Below are positions 18,936-55,325 of a DNA stretch of 59,229 nucleotides, one piece after another (positions within the stretch are counted from its first letter, which is position 1; every line of letters begins with the position of its first letter). A program made the position numbers and the translations under genes. The notes under the pieces are model-generated. The model did not search any database and had not been told where the DNA came from. It worked only from the letters and a program-made list of their open reading frames with translations. This DNA comes from an uncultured Planctomycetales bacterium (lineage in GTDB: Bacteria; Omnitrophota; Gorgyraeia; Gygaellales; Profunditerraquicolaceae): NCBI GenBank assembly GCA_964488935.1, contig CAZAVF010000002.1, positions 1 to 59,229 on the forward strand, in the 5' to 3' direction.

Positions 18936-21067
18936 CAATATCGGGCAGAACTTCGGAAAACGGCGGTGTCCGCGCAGCGGTAAAGCCGGCAAAAGTATTT
19001 TCCGCCTCAAGCGGGCGGGCCGTCTGTATCGCGCTTTTTTTGTCCCTCTGCTGCTGCGGATACGTGTTCCGGTCGGCGGAATCACCGGCGAAGGCGTTTT
19101 ACTCCGCACAGTGGCGGATATTGACGGATTCCGGCTGGGCCGCGGCTTCCGGCGGTCAGGCCGAACTGTACAGCGGGACGAAAAGTTTTCCGGTAAAGCT
19201 GCGCTATTTATTGAAGAAAACAGATCTTTGGCAATGGCCGGAAATAACGTTCTCTCTGGATCTCCCGGAGGCGGCGGATCTAAGCGGTTTCTCATGGCTC
19301 AAGGTCCGCCTGAGGGGTCCGGCAAAAGAAGAGATGTACATCGTCGTGACGGTCGAGGATAAGAACACCGGGGCGTTGAAGCCGTGCATATGCCGGATCC
19401 GCACGGCCGGTTATCCTATAGATTACAAACTGCCTTTTTCCGCGTTTGTTGTCGCTCCGGACTGGACGGTGCGCAATCCCGGGTATTCCAAGGGCATTGA
19501 ATGGGGAAGAACGCGTTCGATAGGAGTGCATAAAAAGGGGGCGGACGGCGGCAGCGGCAGCCTTTTATGGGAGCGCCTGGCTTTTTACGGCGGAGATTGT
19601 CCTTCGCCTTACGATATAGAAAAAGACAGGAGTTCGCTTCCGCGGCGCTCTTTGATTTCACTGGAACAGCGCGGGAAAAAAGACGCTTACCCCGGCCGCG
19701 TGGAGATATTTCCCGGCAAAGGGAACAGCAGAACAGTGGGCAGGTATTTATACGGAGTGAACCTGGCCAGCTGGCTGGATCTTCCGGACGAGGAACAGGT
19801 CAGGCTTTTGAGACCGTCGTTACTGCGCCTGGGAGGCCCTTTCCTTGACCGTTATTCCTGGCGCAGCGGCAGTTATACTTTCCCCGGATCCGAGTTCCCG
19901 GTACGGATGTTCGGGCTGGACAGGTTCGTGCGGTTCTGCCGTTCCGTGGGGAGCGAACCGTTGATCCAGGTAAATGCCCTGGGGTTAAGCGGCGAAGCCG
20001 GGGACGGCAGCGATGCGGATAAAGAGGCCGCGGAGATGGTGCGGTATTTGAACGGCGGACCGGGCCGCGGCGTACAGTTCTTCGAGATAGGGAACGAGCC
20101 GTTCATCTGGCACCTGACGCACCGCGACCTGCATCCGCGGCCCTGCTCCGCGGAGGAATATACTCTCCGTTTCGGGAAGATAGCCGGGGCCATGCGCCGC
20201 GCCCAGCGTGGATTGCGAAACGGACGGGACATCAGGATATTCGCCCCGGCGATCTCCACATCCTGGCAGGGATGGCGTGATTGTCTGGGCGGAGAGAAGA
20301 GCGCCGTGGAGAAATTCCTTGCCGGCTGCGCTTCTCTGAAGGACGGAACCGACGGCAGGCCTTTGCTGGACGTTTTGAGCTTCCATCTGTTCGATTGCTT
20401 TTCCTCCGCAGGGAACCCGGATGTGCAGCACGGTAATGCGGCCCTGCTTGACGCTACCGCCGTATGGTGGAAAGAAGATTACGTCAACAGCTACGACAAG
20501 GCGTTTGCCGCAGGGGACAGGCCGGCGGTATTGCCGCGTTTCAGGAAATGGATGTCCGGCTGCAGGCCGGGGCTCGAGCTGGCGGTGACGGAGTTCAATA
20601 TCGAATCCGAATCAATGGTAAATTACGATATGATCTGGAAGGTGCTGTATTTAAGCGACCTCTACGGCATTCTCGCGGAGGAAGGCGTCGATTACGCCGC
20701 GCAATTCTGTCTGAACTCGTCCGACCAGAACATAGCGATGCTGGACGATACCGGGAAAAAGACAGCCCTGTATCATCCGTTCCGGATGTATTCCAATTAT
20801 TTTTCCGGGGTGTTGCTGGATAAGAAAGTCATCCCTTCGGACTGGGTGAGCGTATATGCTTCCCGCCCGGGCCGGGATTATACGATCATGGCGGTCAACA
20901 AGGCAAACGAGGCCCGGGATACGGAGTTCCTGGTCGGAAAAGATGACGGGAGCCGCATAGTATTTCACCGCAGGCTGCCCGCTTTGAGCTTAAGCTGCAT
21001 CAGGTTGAAAGGCCCCGCTTACAAGGAAGCGGAAGTATGGGAATATGGCAGAGAACAGATCAATTGA
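18932..21067 (+). CDS. Membrane-anchored protein with N-terminal carbohydrate-binding-like domain and clan GH-A-like glycoside hydrolase domain
   Basis: Hydrophobic anchor AVCIALFLSLCCCGYVF. FFEIGNEPFIW (acid/base-type NEP motif) and LAVTEFNIES (nucleophile-type motif) are spaced about 180 aa apart, as in (beta/alpha)8 clan GH-A enzymes. Confidence 0.6.
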   Translation: MTISGRTSENGGVRAAVKPAKVFSASSGRAVCIALFLSLCCCGYVFRSAESPAKAFYSAQWRILTDSGWAAASGGQAELYSGTKSFPVKLRYLLKKTDLWQWPEITFSLDLPEAADLSGFSWLKVRLRGPAKEEMYIVVTVEDKNTGALKPCICRIRTAGYPIDYKLPFSAFVVAPDWTVRNPGYSKGIEWGRTRSIGVHKKGADGGSGSLLWERLAFYGGDCPSPYDIEKDRSSLPRRSLISLEQRGKKDAYPGRVEIFPGKGNSRTVGRYLYGVNLASWLDLPDEEQVRLLRPSLLRLGGPFLDRYSWRSGSYTFPGSEFPVRMFGLDRFVRFCRSVGSEPLIQVNALGLSGEAGDGSDADKEAAEMVRYLNGGPGRGVQFFEIGNEPFIWHLTHRDLHPRPCSAEEYTLRFGKIAGAMRRAQRGLRNGRDIRIFAPAISTSWQGWRDCLGGEKSAVEKFLAGCASLKDGTDGRPLLDVLSFHLFDCFSSAGNPDVQHGNAALLDATAVWWKEDYVNSYDKAFAAGDRPAVLPRFRKWMSGCRPGLELAVTEFNIESESMVNYDMIWKVLYLSDLYGILAEEGVDYAAQFCLNSSDQNIAMLDDTGKKTALYHPFRMYSNYFSGVLLDKKVIPSDWVSVYASRPGRDYTIMAVNKANEARDTEFLVGKDDGSRIVFHRRLPALSLSCIRLKGPAYKEAEVWEYGREQIN

Positions 21068-22949
21068 CATATCGGTGGTGATCCCCACCTATAACCGTAA
21101 ACACCTGCTGGCGGATTGTCTTGATTCGCTGCTGCGCCAGGGACTGCCTGGAAGGGCCTTCGAAATAATCGTGGTGGATGACGGTTCCTCGGACGGCACG
21201 GATGTTCTCGCCGGAGAAGCCGGCAGGAGAGAGGGCAATGTCCGGTATATAAGGCAGGAGCGCCGCGGTCCGGCCGCGGCCAGGAATAACGGAGCAGCGC
21301 ATTGCGGCGGCAGGATAGTCGCCTTCATAGACGACGATTGCCGCGCCTGCCCGGGCTGGCTTCAGGGTATGCTGGATGCCCACCGGCTGCATCCTGATGC
21401 GGCGGCCGTGGGCGGATATACTCTGCCGGATCCGGAAGGCGACGCCGCGCAGGAAGTAAGCCAGTTCCTGAGCAACAGCAGCATCGAGATCGACTGCGGC
21501 GGAGGCCGGGAGCCGATATTCTTCCCTACCTGCAACGTCTCCCTGAAGAAAGACGTCCTCTCGCGCTGCAAGTTCGATCCTTCTTTCCCTTTCCCCGCCG
21601 GAGAAGACCTGGAATTCTTCTGGAGGCTGCATAAGCAGGGGGCGGGACTGGTTTTCGATCCGGAGATCAGGGTTACTCACCGCCGCCTCCCGGGCACGGC
21701 GGCCTTCTGCAGGCAGGCGTATCTTTACGGCAGGGGCAATCTGTTGGTGCAGCGCATTCACCGCGACCACGTGCTGCTTAAGGAGTTGAAGACCGGACGG
21801 TTCGGCTTCTGGGCCGGCACACTGGTCAACATTGCCGGGATACCCCGGTTCGCTTACTGTCTCTACAGGCTCTTCATGCGTTCCAGAGGGAGATCTTACG
21901 GACTGTTGAAAAAAGCCGGCGTGTTCTTTTATTTCTGCCTGCATAAGACGGCGTACATCCTCGGCAATATGGCGGAATTCCGCAGCCGGCGCAGACTTCC
22001 TTTCACCGCTCCGCAGCTTTTAATACTGGACGTCACGCATAAATGCAATCTGCATTGCCGTATCTGCGATATCTGGAAGAACGCGGGACGGGAAAAAGAC
22101 ATCCCCGGAAGGTACGTCAGGAAGCTGCTGAAAGAAGCGGCGTCGCTGGGCATAAAAGAGGTGACCTTTTCCGGCGGGGAAGCCATGCTGCGCAGCGACA
22201 TCCTGGATCTTCTGGCATATGCCCGGGGCCAGGGGCTTAAAGGAGTAGGGCTGCTTTCCAACGGGATCGCCGTGCGGAAGAACCTCGGGAAGATAGAGCC
22301 GTTCCTGCGCGACGGGACGGCGGTCCCTGTCCTGTCCCTGGATTCCCTGCGCCCGGAACTGCATAATTACGTGAGGGCCGACGGGCGGGCCTGGGAGAAT
22401 TCGATCGAAACGCTCAAGTCCCTGGGCGCTTTAAGGAAACAGGCCCCGGAGGTTAAGTTCAGCCTGATCAGCATCGTTTTCGAGCGTAACCTTGAGGAGC
22501 TCGAAGACCTCTATGTTTTCGCGCGCGAACTGGGCGCGTGTAATATCCAGTACCAGCCGCTGCTGGCAAATAATTTGAGGATGTCGGAGAGAAAGAACGC
22601 GGAGTTATGGGTGAAACCGGGGAGTTTCGACAGGCTGGAAAGCGCGGTCGAGAGACTCGCCGCGCGCGGGCGCTCGGACGGCGGGTTCCTGCGGAATTCC
22701 GGGGAAAATCTCAGGCTGTTCAGAAAATATTTTGCCGGTGAGCTGGTCCCCGGCGATTGCGCGTGTTCTTCCGCCGGCAGGACCGTTCTTATCGCCAACG
22801 ACGGGCATTGCCGGACCTGTTTTTCCGCTTACGGGGATATCCGCCGGCAGAGCCTTGAGGATATCCTTGCCGGGCCGCGGATCATCGAGGCCAGGGGGAG
22901 CGTGCGTAAATGCCCCTGGCCGTGCCTGCTGCCCTGTTTTTGCGATTGA
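21045..22949 (+). CDS. Fusion protein: GT2 glycosyltransferase (N) - hydrophobic linker - radical SAM domain with C-terminal Cys cluster (C)
   Basis: N-terminal ISVVIPTYNRKHLLADCLDSLL....IIVVDDGSSDGT (GT2). From about aa 320, LDVTHKCNLHCRICD (CxxxCxxC) and FSGGEAMLRSDI. The C-terminus has ...CRTCF...CPWPCLLPCFCD. Confidence 0.85.
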   Translation: MAENRSIDISVVIPTYNRKHLLADCLDSLLRQGLPGRAFEIIVVDDGSSDGTDVLAGEAGRREGNVRYIRQERRGPAAARNNGAAHCGGRIVAFIDDDCRACPGWLQGMLDAHRLHPDAAAVGGYTLPDPEGDAAQEVSQFLSNSSIEIDCGGGREPIFFPTCNVSLKKDVLSRCKFDPSFPFPAGEDLEFFWRLHKQGAGLVFDPEIRVTHRRLPGTAAFCRQAYLYGRGNLLVQRIHRDHVLLKELKTGRFGFWAGTLVNIAGIPRFAYCLYRLFMRSRGRSYGLLKKAGVFFYFCLHKTAYILGNMAEFRSRRRLPFTAPQLLILDVTHKCNLHCRICDIWKNAGREKDIPGRYVRKLLKEAASLGIKEVTFSGGEAMLRSDILDLLAYARGQGLKGVGLLSNGIAVRKNLGKIEPFLRDGTAVPVLSLDSLRPELHNYVRADGRAWENSIETLKSLGALRKQAPEVKFSLISIVFERNLEELEDLYVFARELGACNIQYQPLLANNLRMSERKNAELWVKPGSFDRLESAVERLAARGRSDGGFLRNSGENLRLFRKYFAGELVPGDCACSSAGRTVLIANDGHCRTCFSAYGDIRRQSLEDILAGPRIIEARGSVRKCPWPCLLPCFCD

Positions 22950-23007
22950 ACGCGCCGGAAAGTTGACAAACTCCGACGGCAGCGGATAATATTATAGGGA
23001 ACTTATC

Positions 23008-24372
23008 ATGAGAATAGCTTTGGTCATGCCGCCGCTTTACGGCGTGGATATGCCCCCTTTAGGTATCGCTTACGTGGCGGGGCGCCTGATGCGGGACGGG
23101 CATGAAGTCCGCGTGTTCTGCCTGAACTCCGAGCTTTTTCATCATAACCCGGATAAGCGGTATCTCTGGGACTGGGACAGTTCCGACGAATGGCGGTCTC
23201 TGGAAAGGGTGGGCGCGCATTTCGATCTCCCGGCGCTTTTGCGGGAATGGACCGGCAGGATATCAGCTTTTGCCCCGGGGATGGTGGGATTCAGCGTGAA
23301 CAGTCATTCTTTGCCGCTTGCCGGGGCGCTCGCGGGGAGTATCCGCGCGGCCGTGAAAGGCGTCCCTTTGATCTTCGGCGGGCCGATGTGTTCCGAAAGC
23401 GATATCTCAAAGGAGACGCGTCCCTGCGCCGACATATACGTGCGGGGAGAAGGGGAAGAGACGGTTTCGGCGATCGCGGCGGCCGCCGGGTCGGGGGCCG
23501 ACCTGCGGGCCCTGACCCTGCCGGGAACGGTGGTAGACACCGGTTCCGGGCTGCGCGACAACGGGCCGGCCGTAAGGATAGGCGATATAGATTCCATCCC
23601 GATCCCGGCGCTGGAGTTATTCGACCTGGAAAGGTATACCAATAAAGAAGAGATACCGATACTTTTTTCCCGGGGCTGCGACTTTTCCTGCAGGTTTTGC
23701 ACCGATAAGCCTATGTGGGGGAACTACCGGGTGAGGACCCCCGAAAGCATCTTCGCGGAGATGAAAAAGCGTTATGCCTCCTGCGGCAGAAAAAAGTTCA
23801 AGTGCAACGATCTGATGGTCAACGGCTCCCCCGCAGCGCTCGACAGGCTGAGTTCGATGATAGCTTCCTCGGGCAGCGGTTTTTCCTGGGGTGGTATGGC
23901 CAGGGCATCCGAGAAGATGACGGCACGGCAGGCCGCCGGATGGAAGGCCGGCGGGTGCGGGTATCTTACTTACGGCGTGGAGAGCGGGTCCCAGGCGGTA
24001 TTGTCGGACATGGGCAAGCCTTCGAGGAGGGCCCTGTCCGTTTCCTTCTCGGCGGCGCACAAGGCGGGGATCAAGGTCAATACCCTCTGGATGGTAGGCT
24101 ATCCCAGCGAGAGATGGCGGGATTTCTTCCGGACCATGTCTTTCCTGCTGCTCCAGCGCGGCAATATCGACGAATTCGTCAGCGTGAGCTGTTGTTATAT
24201 CCCGAGACTTTCCTGGCTGGGGAGGCACAGCCGGGAACTGGGAATAGATTATGATCCCGGCGGCAACTGGTATAACAGGAAAGGGAATAACGCGGGGTTG
24301 CGCCGCCTGCGCAGAAAGCTCCTGCTTATTTACGCCCGTTTGATCGGGATCTACAGAGGGGGGATATCTTAG
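23008..24372 (+). CDS. B12-binding-domain radical SAM protein (class B rSAM)
   Basis: N-terminus MRIALVMPP...PLGIAYVAG (B12-binding Rossmann-like). rSAM motif FSRGCDFSCRFCTD. Confidence 0.85.
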   Translation: MRIALVMPPLYGVDMPPLGIAYVAGRLMRDGHEVRVFCLNSELFHHNPDKRYLWDWDSSDEWRSLERVGAHFDLPALLREWTGRISAFAPGMVGFSVNSHSLPLAGALAGSIRAAVKGVPLIFGGPMCSESDISKETRPCADIYVRGEGEETVSAIAAAAGSGADLRALTLPGTVVDTGSGLRDNGPAVRIGDIDSIPIPALELFDLERYTNKEEIPILFSRGCDFSCRFCTDKPMWGNYRVRTPESIFAEMKKRYASCGRKKFKCNDLMVNGSPAALDRLSSMIASSGSGFSWGGMARASEKMTARQAAGWKAGGCGYLTYGVESGSQAVLSDMGKPSRRALSVSFSAAHKAGIKVNTLWMVGYPSERWRDFFRTMSFLLLQRGNIDEFVSVSCCYIPRLSWLGRHSRELGIDYDPGGNWYNRKGNNAGLRRLRRKLLLIYARLIGIYRGGIS

Positions 24373-24380
24373 GAGAAAAG

Positions 24381-25442
24381 ATGCGCAAATTCACGGGTTT
24401 TCTACGGCTTGCCGGATTCTGGGCGTCCAGGCGGGTAAATTATCCGTTTATCTGCCCGGAGACGGTGCAGTTTTCTTTGACTTCGCGCTGCAACCTGCGC
24501 TGCAAAATGTGCAGTATCGCCGGGCGGCAGCCGGAGGAGGAGGAACTTTCCACTTCCTGTATAAAAGGGCTGATAGACCAGGCGGCGGCATGGGGTGTAA
24601 AAGAAGTCCTGTTCACGGGAGGAGAGCCTTTCCTGCGGAACGACATCTACGAGCTGTGCTCTCACGCCGGAAGGAACAGGATGAGAAGCATCATAACTAC
24701 CAACGGGACTCTTCTCGACCGGGATTCCTGCCGCAGGCTCGCCGAATGCGGAGCCGGGCACGTTCACTTCTCCCTGGACGGGTTGGAAAGGACGCACGAT
24801 CTTCTCCGCGGCAAAGGAACGTTCGCGTCAGCGGTCAGGGCGTTCGGGATGCTGAACGAGGAGAGGGCCCGCGGCGCGGGTTTTTCCCTCGGCGCGGCCT
24901 TCACGGTAATGGATATCAACGCGGGGGAACTTTGCGATTTTGTCCGCCTCTGCGCGGAACTGGGGATGGACGTGGTCAATTTTCAGCCGTTCACTACCGA
25001 TAACGGGGATTTCAGCGCCGATGATCACGGCCTGCGTTTCTGGCCGGGGCCGGAGAAAATAGCGCTGTTGAGGGAGCAGATCAAGGAGCTTGAGAGGACG
25101 AAACCGGATAGGCCGACGATTTTTCAGGAGCCGTCCCTGCGTCTTCTCCCCGCGTATTACGCCGGCACCCTCGGCCCGCGCGACTGGACCTGCTTCGGGG
25201 GGTTCAAGACGGCATTCGTCTGCTATTCAAAAAGGGAGCCGCTGCTTTATACCTGCCACGGTATTTGCGGCGGCCTGGATAAAATGAAAATGCCGGAAGC
25301 ATGGAAATCTTCCGAGGCATACCGCCTGCGTCTGCATTCCCGTTCCTGTCCCAAGCCCTGTCTGCAGAGCTGCTATTCTCTCTCTGCCGCCTCCAGCCTG
25401 GGGGCGGTACTGAAGAAATGCCTGAAAGGGAGCTGCGCATGA
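24381..25442 (+). CDS. Radical SAM protein with SPASM/twitch-like C-terminal Cys motif (paralog 1)
   Basis: LTSRCNLRCKMCS (CxxxCxxC), FTGGEPFLRNDI, and C-terminal Cys residues (CFGG...CHGICGG...CPKPCLQSC). Confidence 0.85.
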   Translation: MRKFTGFLRLAGFWASRRVNYPFICPETVQFSLTSRCNLRCKMCSIAGRQPEEEELSTSCIKGLIDQAAAWGVKEVLFTGGEPFLRNDIYELCSHAGRNRMRSIITTNGTLLDRDSCRRLAECGAGHVHFSLDGLERTHDLLRGKGTFASAVRAFGMLNEERARGAGFSLGAAFTVMDINAGELCDFVRLCAELGMDVVNFQPFTTDNGDFSADDHGLRFWPGPEKIALLREQIKELERTKPDRPTIFQEPSLRLLPAYYAGTLGPRDWTCFGGFKTAFVCYSKREPLLYTCHGICGGLDKMKMPEAWKSSEAYRLRLHSRSCPKPCLQSCYSLSAASSLGAVLKKCLKGSCA

Positions 25443-30319: not shown

Positions 30320-30459
30320 ATCAATCTCCTCGCCTATATATCGTATTCAGGCGGGAGGGATTGTCCGCGTCCTTAAGGGCGCTGTTTTAGCGCCGCCCGA
30401 GTATAAATACCGCCGCCCGCAGCGCGGCCTTAGATCTTACCGCATGGAAAGGAGACAAT

Positions 30460-31212: not shown

Positions 31213-32567
31213 TGCGGGTGGCTTTGGTCAATCTTCCCTGGAGCAGCGAAGGAAGGCTGGGCGTAAGGGCCGGATCCCGCTGGCCTTTTACCAGCGAACC
31301 CGTTCCCGGCGGCCGGCTGCTTTATCTGCCGTTCCCTTTTTTCCTGGCTTACGCGGCGGCGCTGTTGAAAAAGAACGGTTTCCCGGTGACGCTTGCGGAT
31401 TGTATCGCTTCCGGGGAGGGATACGCCGAGTTGTGCGGCAGGCTGTCCGCCGCACAGCCGCAGCTGCTGGCCGCGGAGATATCCGCCCCATCCCTTTCCT
31501 GCGATCTGAAGATGCTGAAAGATCTGCGGGAGGCTTTCCCCGCGATGAAGATCGCCGTTTGCGGGGCCCACGCCACGGCGAGATACGCGGAACTGCTCGA
31601 GAACGGCCCGTTCATAGATTTTGTCCTGCGCGGGGAATACGAACCTGTCCTGCTCGATCTTTCCAGGGCGCTGGATTCCGGCCGCGGGCCGGACGGTATA
31701 CTGGGACTCGTCTGCCGCGGTCCCGGGGGGGAGATCAGGGCGAACGGTGCCCGCCGCATTCAGGATCTCGACAACCTGCCCTGGCCGGAACGCGGTGACC
31801 TGCCGCTGTTGAATTACAACGACGGGTTCTGCGGGCTGCCTTCCCCCAACGTCCAGATGCTTTCCAGCCGCGGTTGTCCGCTGGGATGCTCGTTCTGCCT
31901 CTGGCCGCAGACCGTATATTCCGGGGGGGAATACCGCTGCAGGTCGGTTGTCGATGTAGCCGATGAGTTTGAATCCCTCGCCGCAAAAAAGGTGTTCAGA
32001 GCCGTTTATTTCGACGACGATACATTCAACCTGCGCAGGGAGCGCGTTTTGTCCCTCTGCGCCGAAATAAAGAGAAGAAAATTGAACGTGCCGTGGGCGG
32101 CCATGGCGCGGGCGGACCTGATGGACGAAGAATTGCTCTCCGTCATGGCGGATGCCGGGGCGTACGCGGTGAAATACGGTATAGAATCGGCAGATCCCCG
32201 CGTGAACGAGCTGTGCGGCAAACGCGCGGACCTCCGGCGTTCCCTGGAGATGATACGTTCCACCCGCAGGCACGGGATAAAAGTCCATCTCGCTTTTTGC
32301 GTCGGCCTGCCAGGGGAAGATAAGGGCACCCTGGCCAAGAACACGGAGTTTGTCGGCATGGCCTCCCCCGATTCCCTGCAGGTCTCTTTCGCCGTACCTT
32401 TCCCGGGCACGGCGTATTACGACCTCGTTTTAAAAGAGGGGCTGCTTGCGTCCGGCAACCTGGATGATTATGACGGCAGCCGCATGTGCGTGGTGAAGAA
32501 CCCGGGGCTTTCCCCGTCGGATATGGAAAAGGCGAGAGATGCTCTCTATAGTTGTTGCCGTTTATAA
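31209..32567 (+). CDS. B12-binding-domain radical SAM protein (class B rSAM), second copy
   Basis: N-terminus MRVALVNLPW...; rSAM motif SSRGCPLGCSFCLWP. ATGA overlap with the upstream gene. Confidence 0.85.
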   Translation: MMRVALVNLPWSSEGRLGVRAGSRWPFTSEPVPGGRLLYLPFPFFLAYAAALLKKNGFPVTLADCIASGEGYAELCGRLSAAQPQLLAAEISAPSLSCDLKMLKDLREAFPAMKIAVCGAHATARYAELLENGPFIDFVLRGEYEPVLLDLSRALDSGRGPDGILGLVCRGPGGEIRANGARRIQDLDNLPWPERGDLPLLNYNDGFCGLPSPNVQMLSSRGCPLGCSFCLWPQTVYSGGEYRCRSVVDVADEFESLAAKKVFRAVYFDDDTFNLRRERVLSLCAEIKRRKLNVPWAAMARADLMDEELLSVMADAGAYAVKYGIESADPRVNELCGKRADLRRSLEMIRSTRRHGIKVHLAFCVGLPGEDKGTLAKNTEFVGMASPDSLQVSFAVPFPGTAYYDLVLKEGLLASGNLDDYDGSRMCVVKNPGLSPSDMEKARDALYSCCRL

Positions 32568-33411
32568 CGGTTCTTCCGTGATCGAAAGATGTCTGGAGTC
32601 CCTGCTTTCCCAGGAGTGCCTGGAGGCCCCGGAGATCATAGTGGTGGACAATGGCTCTTCCGACGGCACCGCCGGCATCGTCCGGGAACGGTTCCCCTCG
32701 GTGACCCTGCTGGAGAACGGGAAAAATCTCGGCGCGGCGGCGGCGAGGAACCTCGGCATATCGGCGTCCCGGGGGGAGTGGGTCTTTACTTTCGACTGCG
32801 ATACGGTGGCCGGCAAAGGTTTCCTCTCGGCGGTCGAGTTCCTGACCGGAGCGGAAGAGGGGTCTATGGTAGGGATAATCCAGCCTCTGATATTAGGCTC
32901 CGGGGGCGGAAAGGTATTCTCCCGCGGGATAAGTCTGGATTTCTTCTGGCGTTTCAGCGATATAGACAGGGACGAATCCTGCCGGAAGAGCGAGCGCAAC
33001 CCGGAACGCATAGACGCCGCCTGTTCGGCGTGCGCCGGTTACCGCAGGCGCATGCTGGAAGAGATAAAAGACGGCCACGGGTATTTCGACGAAAGATTCT
33101 TTTTCATGGTGGAGGACGTCGACCTCGGGATGAGGGCCGGTATGGCCGGATGGAAGACCGCGTTCTGCCCGGGCGCGACGGCTTATCATTACGGCAACTC
33201 TTCCGGATTTTCCCGCAGGGAAAGACAGTATCTTTGCTGGAGGAACAGGAAGTTTATGCTGAAGAAGATGAAAAAAACGCCGCTGCGCGCCTGCGCCGCC
33301 CGCTTGTGCTACGATCTGCCGAAAGACACCGTTCTGTTCTTTCGCAACTTTCATGTGAGACGCGCCGTGCTCCGCGGCAGATATGACAATCCCCGGACGT
33401 CTGCCGTTTGA
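32539..33411 (+). CDS. GT2 glycosyltransferase
   Basis: LSIVVAVYNGSSVIERCLESLLSQ....IIVVDNGSSDGT, and a DxD-like FDCD. Confidence 0.85.
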   Translation: MLSIVVAVYNGSSVIERCLESLLSQECLEAPEIIVVDNGSSDGTAGIVRERFPSVTLLENGKNLGAAAARNLGISASRGEWVFTFDCDTVAGKGFLSAVEFLTGAEEGSMVGIIQPLILGSGGGKVFSRGISLDFFWRFSDIDRDESCRKSERNPERIDAACSACAGYRRRMLEEIKDGHGYFDERFFFMVEDVDLGMRAGMAGWKTAFCPGATAYHYGNSSGFSRRERQYLCWRNRKFMLKKMKKTPLRACAARLCYDLPKDTVLFFRNFHVRRAVLRGRYDNPRTSAV

Positions 33412-33500
33412 GGATTCCCTTGTTCCCTCCGGAGGGGTAAGCGGTCTTGGCGCGGGGATGCGCCGGGTTTTTCCCGGCCGCGGCCGGACTATGTCACTTA

Positions 33501-33509
33501 TGGTATAAT
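33501..33509 (+). promoter_or_regulatory. Extended -10 promoter element (TGGTATAAT) in the 377-bp gap upstream of the GT2/RiPP-like cassette
   Basis: TGgTATAAT at 33501-33509. The same extended -10 wording recurs upstream of other operon starts in this window (45216, 58615, 1828). Confidence 0.45.
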
Positions 33510-33788
33510 TGTGTTATACTGAAAACCGGGGCATCCCGGGGGCTGCCAGGGGGGCCGGGTTCTATACCTGCGCGGCCGGGAGACCGCGTCATCTCCGGCC
33601 CTTATGGGATCCGGCCGTTTCTTCGGGGATTACGAAGGACGGCGCATTGTTCCTTTCCGGAATAACCGCGGGCGCCTGTGCCGGACAGCTTGAGAGGCCC
33701 GCTGCTGAAGTCCGTCCAAGGATCAGTCAGCGGCGCGCCGAATTGATCGCGCGAAAGATCCCTTTCACGCGCCGCAGAAAGGTTTTTT

Positions 33789-34502
33789 ATGCCGGGGCTG
33801 GAGATCATAGTTCCCGTACATAACGAAGAAGAGACGATCGCGGAAACCCTGTCGAGATTAAGAAAAGAGGTCAGGTACAGTAACCGCGTGACCATAGTGG
33901 ATGATCATTGCGACGACGGCTCCCTGGAGCGGCTGAAGGGGCCGGATGCGGCAGGCGATAATACAGAACTGGTCAGCAATGAGAACCGCAGGGGATTCGC
34001 GAATGCCCTGAGAAGGGGTATAAAGAATGTCCGCGGATCGGAGGACGCGGTGGTCTTCGTGATGGCGGACGGGTGCGATGATCCGGCCGACATAAACAGG
34101 ATGTTCGAATTAGTGAAGAACGGTTACGACGTCGTTTGCGCCTCGCGTTTCCTGCCCGGCGGTAAAAGAGAGGGCGGCGACCCGGTGAAAAGCCTGTTCT
34201 CTTACTTCGGGAACAGGATATTGACCGTCTTGTTGCCGGGCAGGTTCACCGACTGGACGAATTCTTTCAAGATATACAGAAAAAGGGTCATTGACGAAAT
34301 AAGCCCGTTGAGCAGCGGTTTTGAGATTTCCCTGGAACTGGCGGTGAAGGCATCGGAAGGCGCTTATTCGATCAAGGAAGTTCCCACGGTATGGAGGGAG
34401 CGGGACAAGGGCGTCTCCAAATTCGGCTTTAAGGACGTCCGCGGATATTTAAGGTGGGTCATGTTTGCGCTGGCCTTTAGAATCGGGTTGAGAAAAACGT
34501 GA
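33789..34502 (+). CDS. GT2 glycosyltransferase, polyprenol-phosphate sugar synthase (DPM1/ArnC)-like
   Basis: LEIIVPVHNEEETIAETL.....VTIVDDHCDDGS, ...VFVMADGCDDP, CASRF. Size 237 aa. Confidence 0.8.
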   Translation: MPGLEIIVPVHNEEETIAETLSRLRKEVRYSNRVTIVDDHCDDGSLERLKGPDAAGDNTELVSNENRRGFANALRRGIKNVRGSEDAVVFVMADGCDDPADINRMFELVKNGYDVVCASRFLPGGKREGGDPVKSLFSYFGNRILTVLLPGRFTDWTNSFKIYRKRVIDEISPLSSGFEISLELAVKASEGAYSIKEVPTVWRERDKGVSKFGFKDVRGYLRWVMFALAFRIGLRKT

Positions 34503-34515
34503 GGTTCACGCCGTT

Positions 34516-35562
34516 ATGGAAGAGATGAAACTGGTAAGTTTTTACGTGACCCAGAAATGCGGCCTGTCGTGCTCGCATTGTTTCGGTCTGGGCCGTGACC
34601 TTTTCCCGGATGAAGAGCTTTCCGGGGAGGATTTCTGCCGCGTGCTGGACGAATTATCCGATATAGACGTGATAAGGCTGCTGGGAGGAGAATGTCTGTG
34701 CGAGTGGGACAAGGTGCTTGAGATCACCCGGCACGCTTCGCGTCTGGGGAAGAGAACGGTGATCCTGACCAATACAGAGCTGCTGAACGGGGAACGGGTG
34801 CGGCTGCTTAAAGAGGCCGGCAATTGCATCATACAGGTCTCCTGCGAAGGCATGGGCGCGGTACAGGATTGCGTCAGGGGCGACGGGTATTTCGAGAGAG
34901 TGCTGTGGAAGATCAAGCTGATCAGAGAGCACTCCATCCGCTGCAATATGGTGGTAACTTTGACGCCTCATAACATCGGGCAGATCGCGGATATCTATGC
35001 CATGGCCGCCAATCTCGGCATAATGAAGGTCGTATTCTCGATGGTGCTTGAGGTGAACGGACGGGACGGACTGCGCCTGCCGTTCGGGCAGTTTGAGAAG
35101 GGGATGGATGATCTCGCCGGGGTCTTTAAGGATCACGGCGGCAGAAAACCGGTGCAGATAGGTTTTTCCCCCCTTCTGGTGAATTATCTTTACGCCTGCG
35201 ATAATCCCTGGCTGCGGGACAATTGCGGCAGCGAGATCCGGGAGGCGGCCCATAGGCTGAGAAAATGCGTCCATCAGGGGAAGTTCTGTTTGTTCCCCAA
35301 CGGGGACGTTTATCCCTGCCCGTTCCTCCCTTATCTGAAAAACCCGCCGCCTCCGGCCGGTAATATTAAGAAGCAGCCGGTAACGTTGATCCGCCGGAGC
35401 ATAAAAGAGATGTTCGGCAGGATCAATGTGAAGGATCAGGAGTGCAACAATTGTAATTTATTCATGGACTGCGGCGGGGGGTGCCGCGCCAGGGCTTACA
35501 GGGATACCGGCAGCCTGGATGGGGTAGACGGGGGATGTCCGGTAAGGTCAGCAGGGGTGTAA
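34516..35562 (+). CDS. Radical SAM/SPASM-domain peptide-maturase-like protein
   Basis: FYVTQKCGLSCSHCFG (CxxxCxxC). C-terminal SPASM-type cluster CVHQGKFCLFPNGDVYPCPF...CNNCNLFMDCGGGCRARAY. Confidence 0.85.
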   Translation: MEEMKLVSFYVTQKCGLSCSHCFGLGRDLFPDEELSGEDFCRVLDELSDIDVIRLLGGECLCEWDKVLEITRHASRLGKRTVILTNTELLNGERVRLLKEAGNCIIQVSCEGMGAVQDCVRGDGYFERVLWKIKLIREHSIRCNMVVTLTPHNIGQIADIYAMAANLGIMKVVFSMVLEVNGRDGLRLPFGQFEKGMDDLAGVFKDHGGRKPVQIGFSPLLVNYLYACDNPWLRDNCGSEIREAAHRLRKCVHQGKFCLFPNGDVYPCPFLPYLKNPPPPAGNIKKQPVTLIRRSIKEMFGRINVKDQECNNCNLFMDCGGGCRARAYRDTGSLDGVDGGCPVRSAGV

Positions 35563-35589
35563 TAATTAGAGAAGAGAAAGGGGTATTCC

Positions 35590-35751
35590 ATGCATATGCA
35601 GCGTAAATGGCGGGATAAAGAGGCGGGAGGGGAACCCGCCGCCGGGAAAATGAAATACGTCAAGCCGGCGATGGAAAAGGTGGTCATCCCCAGACCGGAA
35701 GAAAAAGATTTCCATGCCGGGTGCACATGCTGCACCTGCGGCTGCAGTTGA
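35590..35751 (+). CDS. Unannotated small ORF: candidate RiPP precursor peptide with Cys/Thr-rich C-terminus (53 aa; possible alternative 33-aa form from the ATG at 35650)
   Basis: Hand translation: MHMQRKWRDKEAGGEPAAGKMKYVKPAMEKVVIPRPEEKDFHAGCTCCTCGCS*. AAAGGGG RBS about 7 nt upstream of 35590. It fills a 204-bp gap in an otherwise tightly packed cassette. It is below the 60-aa cutoff of the ORF track. Confidence 0.6.
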   Translation: MHMQRKWRDKEAGGEPAAGKMKYVKPAMEKVVIPRPEEKDFHAGCTCCTCGCS

Positions 35752-35766
35752 GCATTCAGCGGTAAG

Positions 35767-36759
35767 ATGCGAAGCGGACCGTTTTCGGGGGGGGAGATGG
35801 AGAAATCCGGCGCCGGGGAAAGAGCCGACTTCAGGATATTCCTGGGAATAGAGAAAGGCAACGGTTTCCTGCAGAAGATAGTCTCACATCTGGAGATATT
35901 CGAATGCCGGCAGGCTTCTTCCAGGGAGGAGGCGGATATTGTGCTGGAATTCAGCGATATCTCCTGCCTGGAAGAAAAAACATGCCGTCTCCCGGAAATG
36001 GACGGTAATATATCTATCTGGGGCCCCTGGCATTACAAGTATCCGGACAACAGCAAGATCGTCGCGAGCTGGGGATTAAAGAACCCTTCCCGGGCGGTGA
36101 TCGATATAGATAGAAGAAGCATACGGTTCTTTATTTCCCCGTATCACTGGGACAAGCCGGATCTGGTACCCATAAGGTTCATCAAAGGGGCGATATACCT
36201 GCTTTTATTGTACAGCGACGTTTATTCTTTCCACAGTTCATGCCTGGCCGACGACCGCGACAACGCCTATATGTTCATAGCCCCTTCCGGGCAGGGGAAA
36301 AGCACGGTGTTGAGGAATCTCCTTAAAGAAGGTTTCCGGTGGATCGCCGACGACCAGGTTTTCCTGAAGGCCGCCGGAAGCAGGATATGGGCCTTCTCCA
36401 TATTCAACCAGGTCGGGCGGAATAACGATATAAACCTGGTCAGGGAATTAGGCAGGGCAAATTGCGTGAGTTCAGGGGCTTTTCTGAAATCGGTGGTCGT
36501 GCTTTCCGTGGCGCCCGGGGAAAGGACCGTCATATCTTCCCTGTCCGGTGATGAGGTGCAGGATATCTTCCGGCGTTCCCGCAAGTTCTTTAACTCTACA
36601 TACCTGGAATCGGATCACGATTATCTCAAGGAGCTGTATGAACGGTGGAGCGGGGCGCTGAGGCGGTCCTGCGCGTTCTTCAGAATGGAGTGCGGAGAGG
36701 ACGTCAAGGACGATCCGGCGCTCCTGCATGAAATACTGTCAAACGCCGCCGTATTGTAA
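35767..36759 (+). CDS. HPr-kinase-C-terminal-domain-like P-loop protein (HprK-related kinase / ScmC-like)
   Basis: The P-loop in context, YMFIAPSGQGKSTVLRNLLKEGFRWIADDQVFL, resembles the HprK/P C-terminal kinase domain (G-x-S-G-x-G-K-S...aDD). The start is uncertain (35767 or 35797). Confidence 0.6.
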   Translation: MRSGPFSGGEMEKSGAGERADFRIFLGIEKGNGFLQKIVSHLEIFECRQASSREEADIVLEFSDISCLEEKTCRLPEMDGNISIWGPWHYKYPDNSKIVASWGLKNPSRAVIDIDRRSIRFFISPYHWDKPDLVPIRFIKGAIYLLLLYSDVYSFHSSCLADDRDNAYMFIAPSGQGKSTVLRNLLKEGFRWIADDQVFLKAAGSRIWAFSIFNQVGRNNDINLVRELGRANCVSSGAFLKSVVVLSVAPGERTVISSLSGDEVQDIFRRSRKFFNSTYLESDHDYLKELYERWSGALRRSCAFFRMECGEDVKDDPALLHEILSNAAVL

Positions 36760-36770
36760 GGGAGGACTAT

Positions 36771-37043
36771 ATGGAAAAAGAAGTTTACGGGATAGACAAG
36801 GAAAGGGTAGCCTGGAGGGACATCGAAGGGGAGATAACGATACTAGACAAAAAGGCCGGGGAATTCTTTCATTTGAACGCCGCGGCCTGCAGGATATGGC
36901 ATTTGATCCAGGACGGAGCTTCGGTAGATGAGATTATTTCCGATCTCGGGGGACATTTTGACGCCGGAGAAGAAACGCTGCGCGGGGACATAACCGCTTT
37001 TGTGGGCGAACTTTCCGGGAAAGGGTTCATTAAACGGCAATGA
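36771..37043 (+). CDS. PqqD-family peptide chaperone (RiPP recognition element)
   Basis: 90 aa. VAWRDIEGEITILDKKAGEFFHLNAAACRIWHLIQDGASVDEIISDL...DITAFVGELSGKGFI is the textbook PqqD pattern. Confidence 0.85.
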   Translation: MEKEVYGIDKERVAWRDIEGEITILDKKAGEFFHLNAAACRIWHLIQDGASVDEIISDLGGHFDAGEETLRGDITAFVGELSGKGFIKRQ

Positions 37044-38116
37044 GCGTCGACAGCGGCATAGTCCTGAATAAAGGGATATCCCTGCAGTGGCACATCACTG
37101 AGCGCTGCAACTGGGACTGCCGGCACTGCTACCGCGGCGATATAGCCTCGGAACTGCCGCTCGAGAAACTCTACGCCGTTTTTCTGCAGTTCATCCAGTT
37201 CCTCGATATTTTCGGGATCCCGCGCAGCATGGCCAGATTGAACCTCGTCGGAGGAGAGATATTCATGCGGGAGGACTTCCTCGATTTCCTGGACAGGATA
37301 AGCCCGTATAACGACAGGTACCGTCTTAAGATCCTGACCAACGGCTCTTTGCTGAATAAGGAGGTGGTGGCGAGGATAAAGGCGGCCGGCGTTCACACAC
37401 TTCAATTGAGCGTGGAAGGCATAGGTGAGACGAACGATAGAATAAGGGGGCAGGGCACATTTTCCGGCGTGTTGAAAACGATCGAATTCCTGACCGCCAG
37501 CGGGATGTCGGTGGTGGTCTCCGTTACGCTGGCGAAATACAACCTGCGCGAGATACCGGAGCTCATAGATACTTTTACGGGGATGGGGGTCATGAAACTG
37601 GGTATCCGGCGGCTGGTCCCCATAGGGAATCACCGGAAGGAACTTTTCTCAGGGATGCTCAGTCCCGGGGAGCAGAGGGATTTCTATATGATGCGTTATG
37701 ACCTGGCGAAAGCGGACGCGCGCGGCAAGCAGGCGGTCTATAATCATCTTTGCTGCGAGGACGGCATTTTCTTCCAGGAGGAAGGTCCGGCCGGGGAGTA
37801 TGACAGTCCGGCGATACCCTTATGCGGGGTGCTGAGCAACCGTATCCTGACCGTCATGCCCAACGGCGATGTCCTGCCTTGCCGGAGGCTGCCGATCGTC
37901 CTGGGCAACGTGTTGGAGAGCAGTCTGGTGGACATATGGTTCAGTTCGAAGGTCCTCAACGCTCTGAAGGACCCGCGGCGCGCGGCCCCGGAATGTAAAG
38001 AGTGTAAATATTTCGATTCGTGCAGGGGAGGGGCCAGGTGCGTGAGTTACGGGTATTTCGGTAAACTGGATGCCCCCGATCCCCAGTGCTGGAGATTATT
38101 TAAACGGCTGCCTTAA
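37040..38116 (+). CDS. Radical SAM/SPASM-domain peptide-maturase-like protein (PqqE-like)
   Basis: HITERCNWDCRHCYRG. C-terminal SPASM cluster LCGVLSNRILTVMPNGDVLPCRRL...CKECKYFDSCRGGARCVSY. ATGA overlap with the PqqD gene. Confidence 0.85.
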   Translation: MSVDSGIVLNKGISLQWHITERCNWDCRHCYRGDIASELPLEKLYAVFLQFIQFLDIFGIPRSMARLNLVGGEIFMREDFLDFLDRISPYNDRYRLKILTNGSLLNKEVVARIKAAGVHTLQLSVEGIGETNDRIRGQGTFSGVLKTIEFLTASGMSVVVSVTLAKYNLREIPELIDTFTGMGVMKLGIRRLVPIGNHRKELFSGMLSPGEQRDFYMMRYDLAKADARGKQAVYNHLCCEDGIFFQEEGPAGEYDSPAIPLCGVLSNRILTVMPNGDVLPCRRLPIVLGNVLESSLVDIWFSSKVLNALKDPRRAAPECKECKYFDSCRGGARCVSYGYFGKLDAPDPQCWRLFKRLP

Positions 38117-38132
38117 GTATCAGAGGAGGATT

Positions 38133-52794: not shown

Positions 52795-52796
52795 AG

Positions 52797-55291: not shown

Positions 55292-55325
55292 ATGGATAAA
55301 GCGTGATTTCTTACAAGGGGGGGGA

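Follow-up and report, generated by a model that had tools for sequence, protein, structure and literature searches.

In the 59,229-nt stretch of contig CAZAVF010000002.1 that was analysed here (hereafter the window), nine genes for radical S-adenosylmethionine (rSAM) enzymes lie between 21 and 38 kb, and this block consists of two adjacent and separable units. The first of these (unit 1, 12.0-33.4 kb) carries seven of the nine genes and, judged by its predicted gene products, is an ABC-transporter-dependent surface-glycan locus, the core of which recurs in many Omnitrophota genomes with a variable rSAM complement. The second (unit 2, 33.8-45.1 kb) holds the other two and, from its predicted gene content, is a new member of the rSAM/SPASM-PqqD class of peptides that are made on the ribosome and modified after translation (RiPPs), with unusual accessory genes. 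The architecture and conservation of the units are the most confident part of this account, whereas the substrates and all of the chemistry of both, which we infer, are the least confident part; for the account as a whole our confidence is somewhat better than even.

Nine radical SAM genes in two adjacent units

An open reading frame (ORF) was called an rSAM gene where it held exactly one CxxxCxxC motif and a Pfam Radical_SAM match (PF04055) above the gathering score, and a protein was assigned to a family where its NCBIfam score was at or above the curated cutoff. Nine ORFs, all on the + strand, have one such motif each together with the Radical_SAM match, and they begin at positions 21045 (r1), 23008 (r2), 24381 (r3), 25439 (r4), 26689 (r5), 27864 (r6), 31209 (r7), 34516 (r8) and 37040 (r9). 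Between 9.1 and 40.8 kb the motif is absent from every other ORF. Four of the nine (r4, r6, r8, and r9) also have a Pfam SPASM match above the gathering score. A first-pass annotation of this DNA had pointed to these nine genes, had described r1 as a fusion and r2 and r7 as B12-binding proteins, and had placed glycosyltransferase family 2 (GT2) domains at 21045, 29048, 32539, and 33789; the rSAM genes and all four GT2 domains are indeed present, and the Pfam domains of the fusion and of both B12-binding proteins score above the gathering threshold. Its view that these are not housekeeping genes also holds, as none of the nine passes any curated NCBIfam model and the sole further rSAM gene of the window is the housekeeping RlmN (56872-57900), which does pass its curated cutoff. 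RlmN aside, no curated cutoff was passed by any rSAM, GT2, PqqD or HprK-like protein of the window, and thus no sub-family name can be assigned to them.

When the proteins of the window were compared with each other by BLASTP, the rSAM enzymes fell into three groups of paralogs. The first consists of the C-terminal, rSAM half of the fusion (r1C) together with r3, r4, r5, and r6 (25-32% identity over the full length), the second of the two B12-domain proteins, r2 and r7, and the third of r8 and r9. The sequence GGE is invariant in the alignments of r1C and r3-r6.

The two units are separated by the following features:

33411-33789: gap of 377 bp between the units
33446-33467, + strand: terminator-like hairpin of nine pairs, six of them G-C, followed by TTTTT (a consensus match only)
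33491-33520: promoter-like site within the gap

At this boundary the GC content also drops from about 0.59 to about 0.54, and the gap, the terminator-like hairpin and the drop in GC content are together our reason for treating the block as two units. Further evidence comes from other genomes. A scan of species-representative genomes for the core of unit 1 yielded 59 loci, nearly all labelled Omnitrophota, and gene contents were counted in those 22 loci whose flanks were complete to 10 kb in both directions. These 22 loci carry 4-10 rSAM genes each (median 6.5) and contain no relatives of the PqqD, HprK-like, r8 or r9 proteins of unit 2; a relative of r8 was likewise absent from all 59 glycan loci. 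The window derives from a genome of the Omnitrophota, its closest named relative being Ca. Undivivens industriae (84% identity), a member of that phylum, and in relatives at 84-86% and at 70% protein identity (L004-L007) the order of genes is identical from the PRK04334-family gene to the GT2 gene at 32539. Three other loci (L064-L066, 92% identity at r9) span the junction of the units, from the rSAM gene at 26689 through the EamA gene. Since the gene order is kept in related genomes and both it and the junction are common to independent assemblies, a chimeric assembly is excluded.

The earlier statements that this density of rSAM genes is atypical, and that no characterised system fits it, agree with the literature that was found: neither unit was found described in work on radical SAM enzymes or glycosyltransferases of Omnitrophota or on radical SAM enzymes with O-antigen, capsule, Wzt or galactofuranose. 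Of the two readings, not mutually exclusive, that had been offered for the block, a radically tailored glycan suits the seven rSAM genes at 21.0-33.4 kb, where the sugar substrate is a predicted one, and a crosslinked ribosomal peptide suits only 34.5-38.1 kb and is not supported for the former interval, which lacks both a PqqD and a precursor.

The putative glycan locus and its radical SAM complement

The part of unit 1 that lies upstream of the rSAM genes is comprised of six genes:

12004-13173, + strand: GT4 glycosyltransferase (Pfam Glycos_transf_1 and Glyco_transf_4), with a relative in 17 of the 22 loci
13157-14131, + strand: WecA/MraY-family polyprenyl-phosphate N-acetylhexosamine-1-phosphate transferase, the initiating enzyme (PF00953, 97 bits)
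14131-15426, + strand: flavoenzyme, homolog of UDP-galactopyranose mutase (UGM) of the eukaryote type (Pfam Amino_oxidase and NAD_binding_8)
15419-16195, + strand: Wzm, ABC-2 permease (Pfam ABC2_membrane), in 22 of the 22 loci
16206-18935, + strand: Wzt, 909 amino acids (aa), with a nucleotide-binding domain and three tandem beta-sandwich repeats of about 215 aa, in 21 of the 22 loci
18932-21067, + strand: GH44-like protein (Pfam Glyco_hydro_44, 46.7 bits), in only 6 of the 22 loci

The initiating phosphotransferase, GT4, FAD enzyme, ABC-2 exporter, and hydrolase that had been anticipated in this position were thus all found. A PF00953 transferase, Wzm, Wzt, and cytoplasmic glycosyltransferases occur here in a single locus, as in the ABC-transporter-dependent pathways for polyprenol-linked glycans, and no match to Wzy_C was detected in 12.0-33.4 kb, the only flippase-like gene being located in the neighbouring cassette. 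The WecA-like protein, which has multiple hydrophobic segments and is found in 18 of the 22 loci, has ECA_wecA as its best NCBIfam match, and for Wzm the best match is the galactan export permease Wzm/RfbD, both of them below the cutoff.

The flavoenzyme, which is present in 19 of the 22 loci, is closest by phmmer among PDB sequences to the UGM of T. cruzi (4dsg, 6.6e-40, residues 5-425), followed by the UGMs of A. fumigatus (about 1e-39), and its Pfam domains are Amino_oxidase and NAD_binding_8 rather than GLF. Its longest ORF begins at 13894, and the related loci give a product of 432-433 aa. As no match to a galactofuranosyltransferase of the GlfT2 type was seen when the GT2 domains were compared with PDB sequences, it is the mutase homolog by itself that points to galactofuranose. 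On these predicted activities, the glycan made by unit 1 is probably lipid-linked and furanose (galactofuranose)-containing.

The nucleotide-binding domain of Wzt is closest to that of the O-antigen Wzt from A. aeolicus (8dku, 2.7e-58) and also matches a Wzt chain from M. abscessus (9qfx_C, deposited as RfbE). Its C-terminal 650 aa have no Pfam match, and in the AlphaFold2 (AF2) model (predicted local distance difference test score, pLDDT, 80) they are all-beta. The three repeats match each other with an hhalign probability of 100 (E 1e-39 to 1e-43), the middle of the first (residues 356-467) being predicted with low confidence. The top Foldseek match of the model is the full-length A. aeolicus Wzt, over 360-394 columns that extend into its carbohydrate-binding domain, with a root-mean-square deviation (rmsd) of 11-13 angstroms. 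Relatives of this Wzt form more than 120 clusters of about 900 aa with 98-99% coverage, and those that are named by organism are metagenome-assembled genomes (MAGs) of Omnitrophota/Omnitrophica. The GH44-like protein, which has an N-terminal hydrophobic segment (residues 22-49), is probably exported. Pfam searches at E <= 1 gave nothing usable for the C-terminus of Wzt, the flanks of the GH44 domain, the extension of the GT2 at 29048, the 250-aa membrane protein of unit 1 or the secreted paralogs of unit 2.

In its composition, unit 1 resembles the ABC-transporter pathways for O-antigens and galactans, such as those of E. coli O9a, the K. pneumoniae O-galactans, the A. aeolicus WzmWzt system and the mycobacterial galactan with Glf, GlfT1/2, and Wzm-Wzt. 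It has in common with them a WecA-type initiator, extension by GT4 and GT2 enzymes, a homolog of UGM-type mutases, Wzm and the lack of Wzy, as well as a C-terminal beta domain in Wzt where the carbohydrate-binding domain sits. However, the known pathways are without an rSAM step, whereas the loci described here have 4-10 rSAM genes each, including GT2-rSAM fusions; their Wzt has three tandem repeats in place of a single carbohydrate-binding domain; and the UGM homolog belongs to a long type that resembles the eukaryotic one.

The GT4 glycosyltransferase (12004-13173) weakly matches TIGR04157, 'glyco_rSAM_CFB' (69 bits against a cutoff of 400), and the name of this family suggests a group of glycosyltransferases tied to radical SAM genes in Bacteroidota, and hence a possible distant precedent for their linkage. 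Directly upstream of unit 1 (10292-11999 in the window) there is a PAC2-family gene, with or without a PRK04334-family gene. The PAC2 gene is placed in the same manner in L020, L023, L030, and L045, where the fusion is 41-45% identical and PAC2 59-61% identical, which indicates that unit 1 holds a conserved chromosomal position and is not a mobile island.

The remaining genes of unit 1 encode the rSAM enzymes and GT2 glycosyltransferases:

21045-22949, + strand: r1, bifunctional GT2-rSAM fusion and marker gene of the locus (Pfam GT2 residues 10-164, Radical_SAM residues 330-492, weak SPASM)
23008-24372, + strand: r2, rSAM enzyme with a B12-binding domain (Pfam B12-binding 48.7 bits, Radical_SAM 40.2 bits)
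24381-25442, + strand: r3, twitch-like rSAM paralog (Pfam Radical_SAM 86.5 bits)
25439-26698, + strand: r4, twitch-like/SPASM rSAM paralog (Radical_SAM 73 bits, SPASM 28.6 bits)
26689-27876, + strand: r5, twitch-like rSAM paralog (Radical_SAM 70.7 bits)
27864-29048, + strand: r6, twitch-like/SPASM rSAM paralog (Radical_SAM 86.2 bits, SPASM 34.5 bits)
29048-30319, + strand: GT2 with a C-terminal extension of 200 aa (Pfam Glycos_transf_2, 109.6 bits)
30460-31212, + strand: membrane protein with two hydrophobic segments (residues 11-63) and a coiled-coil-like region, in 4 of the 22 loci (close relatives only)
31209-32567, + strand: r7, rSAM enzyme with a B12-binding domain, AprD4/HpnJ-like (B12-binding 34.7 against a cutoff of 32.1)
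32539-33411, + strand: GT2, last gene of unit 1 (Pfam Glycos_transf_2, 94.5 bits)

The fusion r1 has 424 homologs at E <= 1e-10, and the 120 of these that were listed all cover at least 94% of the query. Those among the 120 whose source is named are all MAGs of Omnitrophota/Omnitrophica, save one labelled 'Patescibacteria group' and one 'bacterium', and the covalent joining of GT2 to rSAM was found in hundreds of genomes. In an alignment of 17 sequences, the invariant residues are D96 and D98 of the DDDC stretch and the E187-D188 pair on the glycosyltransferase side, and CxxxCxxC, GGE, C574, G587, C592, C623, C627, and C631 on the rSAM side. When the AF2 model (pLDDT 86.4) was used for fold searches, its GT2 half matched generic GT-A enzymes (AvpGT, WrtF, K4CP, TarP) and its rSAM half matched SkfB, CteB, and SuiB; to judge by the model, such matches do not separate sugar from peptide substrates.

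In the alignments r3 is 26-35% identical to r1C, r4, r5, and r6, and shares with them five conserved auxiliary cysteines; a look-up of its exact sequence returned no record. Across the 166 members of this paralog family only five auxiliary cysteines are conserved, corresponding to C271, C292, C323 (86%), C327, and C331 of r3. The seven-cysteine motif of SPASM domains (CX9-15GX4C ... CX2CX5CX3C ... C) is absent from r1C and r3-r6, where its second half is reduced to C-x3-C-x3-C and its first half reads C-x12-G-x4-C in the fusion family and, longer, C-x20-C in r3. As only five auxiliary cysteines are conserved, one auxiliary cluster rather than two is predicted; in answer to the question whether these paralogs are of the SPASM or the twitch type, their auxiliary domain appears from sequence to be twitch-like and fits one cluster. 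In r3-r6 the CxxxCxxC motif is found at residues 15-41, leaving no room for a fused peptide-recognition element, and the genes of unit 1 overlap or abut, leaving no space for a precursor gene. None of the rSAM and GT2 proteins has a membrane segment.

The most conserved rSAM enzyme of the locus is r5, with best matches of at least 40% identity in 15 of the 22 loci and of 46-57% in distant ones. An exhaustive phmmer search at E <= 1e-30 among 1.84 billion sequences returned only 62 cluster representatives related to it. The long proteins among the r5 hits combine GT2+rSAM+rSAM (1134-1251 aa), two or three rSAM domains or, in one case, B12-rSAM+rSAM/SPASM, and the named multi-domain relatives are from Omnitrophota, plus one labelled Deltaproteobacteria.

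The two B12-domain proteins both have an N-terminal PF02310 domain above the gathering score followed by an rSAM core, which places them in the class B type. For r2 the best NCBIfam matches are ApyD, BchE, and a RiPP C-methyltransferase, all far below the cutoff, and an ortholog of 47-51% identity is present in several distant loci. In r7 the HpnJ model (TIGR03471) matches over nearly the full length with 231.6 bits (E 1.8e-68, cutoff 577.6) and the AprD4 model (NF033070) with 118.9 bits (cutoff 500), so that r7 is a homolog, not a member, of these families; among PDB sequences it matches AprD4 (6fd2, 6.4e-27) over residues 89-451. Of these two enzymes, AprD4 acts as a diol dehydratase on aminoglycosides, and HpnJ brings about a ring contraction in hopanoid-linked glucosamine. 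Among the relatives of r7 with a solved structure the nearest is AprD4, which we take not to use cobalamin. An Rfam scan returned two tRNAs only, with no cobalamin or SAM riboswitch near the locus.

No family was found for residues 221-423 of the GT2 at 29048, nor any Pfam or NCBIfam family for the membrane protein at 30460. In distant loci a GT2 of the 29048 type follows a gene of the r6 type and precedes one of the r7 type where the locus extends so far, and an ortholog of the GT2 at 32539 (43-47% identity) follows an r7-type gene in L033, L036, L055, and L057. The first-pass annotation had linked the GT2 enzymes to S-glycosylation of the SunS type, and this link is not supported: against a cutoff of 350 for SunS (TIGR04195), the enzymes at 32539 and 29048 reach 35.4 and 23.7 bits, respectively, that at 33789 gave no match at E <= 0.001, and SunS is not in the best 25 of 66 families for the fusion.

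The 59 loci together contain 274 rSAM ORFs, with several separate groups of B12-domain proteins, and the cluster of r1C/r3-r6 paralogs has 177 members (five of them from the window) distributed across 54 loci. Two sub-cassettes recur at 40-57% identity, viz. r5-r6-GT2-[r7 B12]-GT2 and r2 B12...r3-r4. The complement differs widely from species to species, which, together with the multi-rSAM fusions, suggests that the tailoring set is diversifying quickly. In both L048 and L049 the fusion has two best matches in succession, representing either an apparent duplication of GT2-rSAM or one gene split by a frameshift. Another locus, L022, has 10 rSAM ORFs within 22 kb, and one protein of 1034 aa (P0380) has three rSAM domains.

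Proposed role of the glycan locus and alternative explanations

A pathway can be proposed for unit 1 on the basis of these similarities. The WecA-like enzyme would initiate a chain on polyprenyl phosphate, which the GT4 and several GT2 enzymes would lengthen at the cytoplasmic face; the UGM homolog, from its predicted mutase activity, would probably provide a furanose donor; and Wzm/Wzt would move the completed chain out, with the three Wzt repeats possibly recognising a feature of it. The seven rSAM enzymes most likely tailor sugar residues by hydrogen abstraction in the cytoplasm, prior to export, with the lipid-linked glycan or its immediate sugar donors as predicted targets. The candidate reactions are deoxygenation or dehydration, ring rearrangement, epimerisation, oxidation, and C-methylation. 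We place these enzymes on the sugar side because recurrent fusions join rSAM domains to GT2 domains, because unit 1 is without peptide machinery, because r7 resembles the sugar-acting AprD4 and HpnJ, and because the auxiliary domain of the paralogs is twitch-like. In this last regard they are similar to BtrN, which has a single twitch-like auxiliary cluster region. The likeness of r7 to AprD4 and HpnJ extends over nearly the full length with scores far below the family cutoffs, and HpnJ also works beside a GT2 (HpnI).

More speculatively, the surface polysaccharide of Omnitrophota may be remodelled by a battery of rSAM enzymes, some of them as assembly-line GT2-rSAM(-rSAM) fusions, to give residues that are carbocyclic or ring-contracted, deoxygenated, C-methylated or C-C/ether-bridged, the variable rSAM set, with its 4-10 genes and many orthogroups, being the equivalent in this phylum of serotype diversity that is read by the triple-repeat Wzt. 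We put this forward tentatively, rating it at a little less than an even chance. Such a polysaccharide would represent a class of glycan chemistry without characterised precedent, and there is a substantial chance that the chemistry of the unit 1 glycan is new.

A number of observations weigh against this interpretation. Among characterised proteins, those most closely related to r1C and r3-r6 are for the most part maturases of peptides or cofactors (SkfB, PqqE, CteB, SuiB, NirJ/Ahb), and the sugar enzymes rank no higher than these by either sequence or fold. For all nine enzymes the substrates are assigned by homology and gene context, and we know of no radical SAM enzyme with demonstrated activity on a lipid-linked polysaccharide. 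The block in the window lacks nucleotide-sugar genes from which the composition of the sugars might be deduced, the UGM homolog excepted. The proposal that the Wzt repeats are carbohydrate-binding modules derives from the high-rmsd Foldseek alignment of a predicted model, and the assignment of the HprK-like protein of unit 2 is weak (E about 1e-2 to 1e-4). Lastly, unit 2 adjoins unit 1 in close relatives (L064), which leaves room for a functional link between the two.

If the paralogs acted instead on free nucleotide sugars, making deoxy, branched-chain or epimerised donors in the manner of the DesII, BlsE, GenK, and AprD4 pathways, this would be a variant of tailoring on the glycan and not its opposite. 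The profile of the paralogs has BlsE among its best PDB matches, and DesII and BtrN are also among its matches; moreover, the paralogs have a single auxiliary cluster of the predicted twitch-like kind, a typical feature of rSAM enzymes that, like BtrN, act on small molecules. All of the well-studied sugar-modifying rSAM enzymes that we know of (DesII, BtrN, AprD4, BlsE) act on small soluble substrates. However, GT2 is repeatedly found fused to either one or two rSAM domains, which favours activity during sugar transfer, and the block in the window is without the partner enzymes of such pathways (aminotransferases, 4,6-dehydratases, reductases). AprD4, HpnJ, BtrN, DesII, BlsE, and GenK work singly or paired on small soluble or hopanoid-linked sugars, and they are not known to be fused to glycosyltransferases or to occur as 5-10 paralogs in a locus for an exported polymer. 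We consider it unlikely that free nucleotide sugars are the substrates.

It is about equally doubtful that unit 1 uses its rSAM enzymes to make or alter an acceptor other than a sugar, such as a lipid, an isoprenoid or a small cofactor-like molecule, that the GT2 enzymes glycosylate and Wzm/Wzt exports, by analogy with the hopanoid HpnH/I/J/K or the mycofactocin MftC/MftF enzymes; a glycolipid or a glycosylated metabolite would then result. Of the NCBIfam models, r7 matches best that of the hopanoid enzyme HpnJ; on the mycofactocin glycosyltransferase MftF (TIGR03965, cutoff 280) the fusion's GT2 and that at 29048 score 137.2 and 129.9 bits, about as on exopolysaccharide glycosyltransferase models; the tetraether synthase 7tol is among the PDB matches to the paralog profile; and several papers on rSAM-dependent synthesis of membrane-spanning lipids mention Omnitrophota. 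These family matches are all far below the cutoffs, however, and the block contains no gene for a lipid, an isoprenoid or a precursor peptide, whereas its core of WecA-like, GT4, UGM-like, Wzm, and Wzt proteins, the last with a C-terminus resembling a carbohydrate-binding domain, is the signature of a polymer linked to polyprenyl diphosphate.

So far, radical SAM action on sugars has been seen only in a few antibiotic and hopanoid pathways, with one or two enzymes in each. A locus that recurs across a phylum with 4-10 rSAM enzymes, some of them fused to glycosyltransferases, would indicate that a wide field of polysaccharide modification is still unexplored, and would provide new enzymes for glycoengineering. 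The Omnitrophota have been reported as very small cells, and some of them are described as host-dependent or predatory. An unusual surface glycan that is conserved and yet variable might help to determine contact between cells, recognition by phages or the stability of the envelope. The GT2-rSAM fusion, the Wzt of about 900 aa with its triple repeat, and the UGM homolog provide simple sequence markers for the locus.

The peptide cassette and neighbouring genes

Unit 2 is comprised of the following genes:

33789-34502, + strand: polyprenyl-phosphate GT2-like protein (DPM1/ArnC/AglJ type), first gene of the unit
34516-35562, + strand: r8, radical SAM/SPASM maturase (Pfam Radical_SAM and SPASM)
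35590-35751, + strand: precursor peptide of 53 aa with the core ...DFHAGCTCCTCGCS, an ORF in a gap of 204 bp
35767-36759, + strand: HprK-like P-loop protein in a ScmC-like position (Walker A APSGQGKST)
36771-37043, + strand: PqqD-family chaperone (RiPP recognition element) of 90 aa (Pfam PqqD 57.2 bits against a cutoff of 23.4)
37040-38116, + strand: r9, radical SAM/SPASM maturase (Radical_SAM, and SPASM 40.3 bits)
38070-39110, 39107-39919, and 39935-40756, + strand: three paralogous secreted proteins (mutual identity 24-31%)
40843-42378, - strand: flippase-like membrane protein of the Polysacc_synt type (weak NCBIfam match to HfsF, no Pfam match for the protein of the window)
42371-43552, - strand: NTP_transf_5 'uncharacterised nucleotidyltransferase' (PF14907, 154 bits), kept in the cassette
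43539-45092, - strand: GT-C glycosyltransferase of the PMT_2/ArnT type (Pfam PMT_2, 58 bits, above the gathering score)

A precursor, a PqqD and maturases, the generic components of a RiPP pathway, are co-located and co-conserved in 34.5-38.1 kb only. The cysteine-rich precursor candidate that had been proposed earlier corresponds to the 53-aa ORF at 35590-35751, which appears as a called gene of 54 aa in L064-L066 and in L068. Its motif KYVKP[AQ]MEKV and an identical core, GCTCCTCGCS, are kept at 61% identity of the maturase, the N-terminus being variable and containing indels, and in the distant L067 there is an ORF of 68 aa with NPQMEK and a cysteine-containing tail. Another small protein of the window could be mistaken for a RiPP precursor, viz. 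an FmdB-type protein of 72 aa (8857-9075, + strand) with a Cys/Gly/Ser-rich tail ...GGCSGCSGGNCSTCGH; it was rejected as a precursor, being an ordinary Zn_ribbon_8 protein located 25 kb from the cassette.

Unlike the paralogs of unit 1, both maturases have the full seven-cysteine SPASM motif, as read from their sequences: C-x11-G-x4-C, CNNCNLFMDCGGGC, and a further C in r8, and C-x14-G-x4-C, CKECKYFDSCRGGARC, and a further C in r9. The best NCBIfam match of r9 is rSAM_ACGX (155.7 bits against a cutoff of 400), and it has 818 homologs, many of them from Omnitrophota; a metagenome scan anchored on r8 gave one locus (L063, 23% identity), the context of which was uninformative. For the PqqD protein the NCBIfam models of the lasso, GeoRSP, Scm, and HPr-rel-A PqqD proteins all score below the cutoff. 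The HprK-like protein matches Hpr_kinase_C with 15.9 bits (E 0.0095, gathering score 33.3) and HprK_rel_A (TIGR04352) with 21.1 bits (E 1.4e-4, cutoff 200), both below the cutoff; its Walker A sequence is conserved in L068, and the protein at the equivalent position in L067 matches ScmC and Hpr_kinase_C. By NCBIfam, the GT2 at 33789 is closest to AglJ, PgfS, dolichyl-P hexose transferase, ArnC, and PpgS, with scores short of the cutoff in each case. The three secreted paralogs have N-terminal hydrophobic leaders and faint matches to LolA_like and TP_0789-like proteins, and are present in the cassettes of L064 and L068. The first of them and the protein at 45318-46103 have a short N-terminal motif of the 'LA_0442/LA_0875' type (LxLKxGxxVxGxIxE), and the 45318 protein travels with the peptide cassette in L064 and L068.

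The whole set of cassette genes adjoins unit 1 in L064-L066. In L068 (61% identity) the same cassette of 11 genes is preceded by a minus-strand gene upstream of r8 instead of unit 1, and a GT2 of 232 aa is situated at its far end beside PMT_2, with none before the first rSAM gene. This arrangement indicates that the cassette is a unit of its own and that the GT2 at 33789 belongs to it. In L067 an r9 homolog of 46% identity occurs with another PqqD, a ScmC/HprK-like protein, and further rSAM enzymes. Both L064 and L068 keep the polyprenyl-phosphate GT2, the flippase-like protein, and the GT-C, which might form a three-component system for extracytoplasmic glycosylation (a GT2 of the DPM1/ArnC type, a small or Wzx-type flippase, and a GT-C); the similarity of the second protein to flippases is weak, and its orthologs in the two loci match Polysacc_synt.

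These arrangements bear on a further possibility, that 21-38 kb is a single RiPP pathway in which all nine rSAM enzymes and the GT2 enzymes act on the cysteine-rich peptide or an unrecognised protein and Wzm/Wzt exports the resulting, heavily crosslinked glycopeptide. We consider this very improbable: in the window and in L064-L066 the cassette does sit beside unit 1 with the same orientation, peptide maturases are the characterised proteins to which the twitch-like paralogs come closest, and the GT4 weakly matches TIGR04157, with its name hinting at an association with rSAM enzymes, but the rSAM-rich glycan block is kept without PqqD, HprK-like protein, r8 and r9 in 22 loci, the cassette does not follow unit 1 in L068, a sample with a unit 1 contig of 70% identity (L002) has its 46% r9 homolog on another contig and in another context, r3-r6 have no fused peptide-recognition element, membership of the SunS type is not supported, and the gap, hairpin, and GC shift lie between the blocks.

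Treated as a separate RiPP pathway, unit 2 may work as follows. PqqD would bring the 53-aa precursor to r8 and r9, which probably form thioether-type crosslinks in the core. In pseudomycoidin the Ser at the C-terminus is phosphorylated by a kinase of the HprK family, and a hexose is added by an enzyme from an uncharacterized nucleotidyltransferase family (PMC6993621). By analogy, the terminal serine of the present peptide may be decorated by the HprK-like protein and NTP_transf_5. Should the peptide be glycosylated, the candidates would be the HprK-like kinase with NTP_transf_5, or the polyprenyl-phosphate GT2 with the PMT_2 GT-C.

Among known systems, as defined in NCBIfam/TIGRFAM, unit 2 is most readily compared with SynChlorMet (Scm), HPr-rel-A, GeoRSP, and ACGX. 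It shares with the SynChlorMet type two rSAM/SPASM proteins, a PqqD-family protein, an HprK-like protein at the position of ScmC, and a short precursor with a Cys-rich C-terminus. However, against cutoffs of 400, r9 scores 123.7 on ScmE, 64.3 on ScmF, and 155.7 on ACGX, and r8 scores 70.9 on ScmE; the PqqD scores 25.1 on ScmD (cutoff 100); and the core differs from the ACGX repeats. Beyond the SynChlorMet set, unit 2 has NTP_transf_5, the GT-C, the polyprenyl-phosphate GT2, the flippase-like protein, and the three secreted paralogs. With the lasso peptides paeninodin and pseudomycoidin, which are phosphorylated and hexosylated at their C-terminal serine (PadeK/PsmK, PsmN; PMC6993621), it has in common a Ser-terminal precursor, an HprK-like protein, and a nucleotidyltransferase, PsmN being likened to the latter by family description only. 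Unlike these, it has neither a lasso cyclase nor a leader protease, its maturases are rSAM/SPASM proteins, and the kinase similarity is weak. The cassette thus adds a new family of precursors, KYVKPxMEKV ... GCTCCTCGCS, with unusual co-conserved tailoring and export genes.

Some other genes of the window may also be mentioned. Some 13 kb downstream of the block rich in rSAM genes, five successive genes on the + strand (51113-56834) encode a nucleoside phosphorylase (PNP_UDP_1), an MtnA-type 5-(methylthio)ribose-1-phosphate isomerase (which passes TIGR00524), a class II aldolase fused to SCP2, an aldehyde dehydrogenase and an acyl-CoA ligase, with RlmN (56872-57900) following them. We take this run to resemble the 'DHAP shunt' (dihydroxyacetone phosphate), a route for the salvage of 5'-deoxyadenosine, which each turnover of a radical SAM enzyme leaves as a by-product. 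At the other end of the window (3903-8188), the gene for a 787-aa protein with TPR, DUF3857, and transglutaminase-core domains comes before that for a protein of 641 aa that begins with a PilZ domain.

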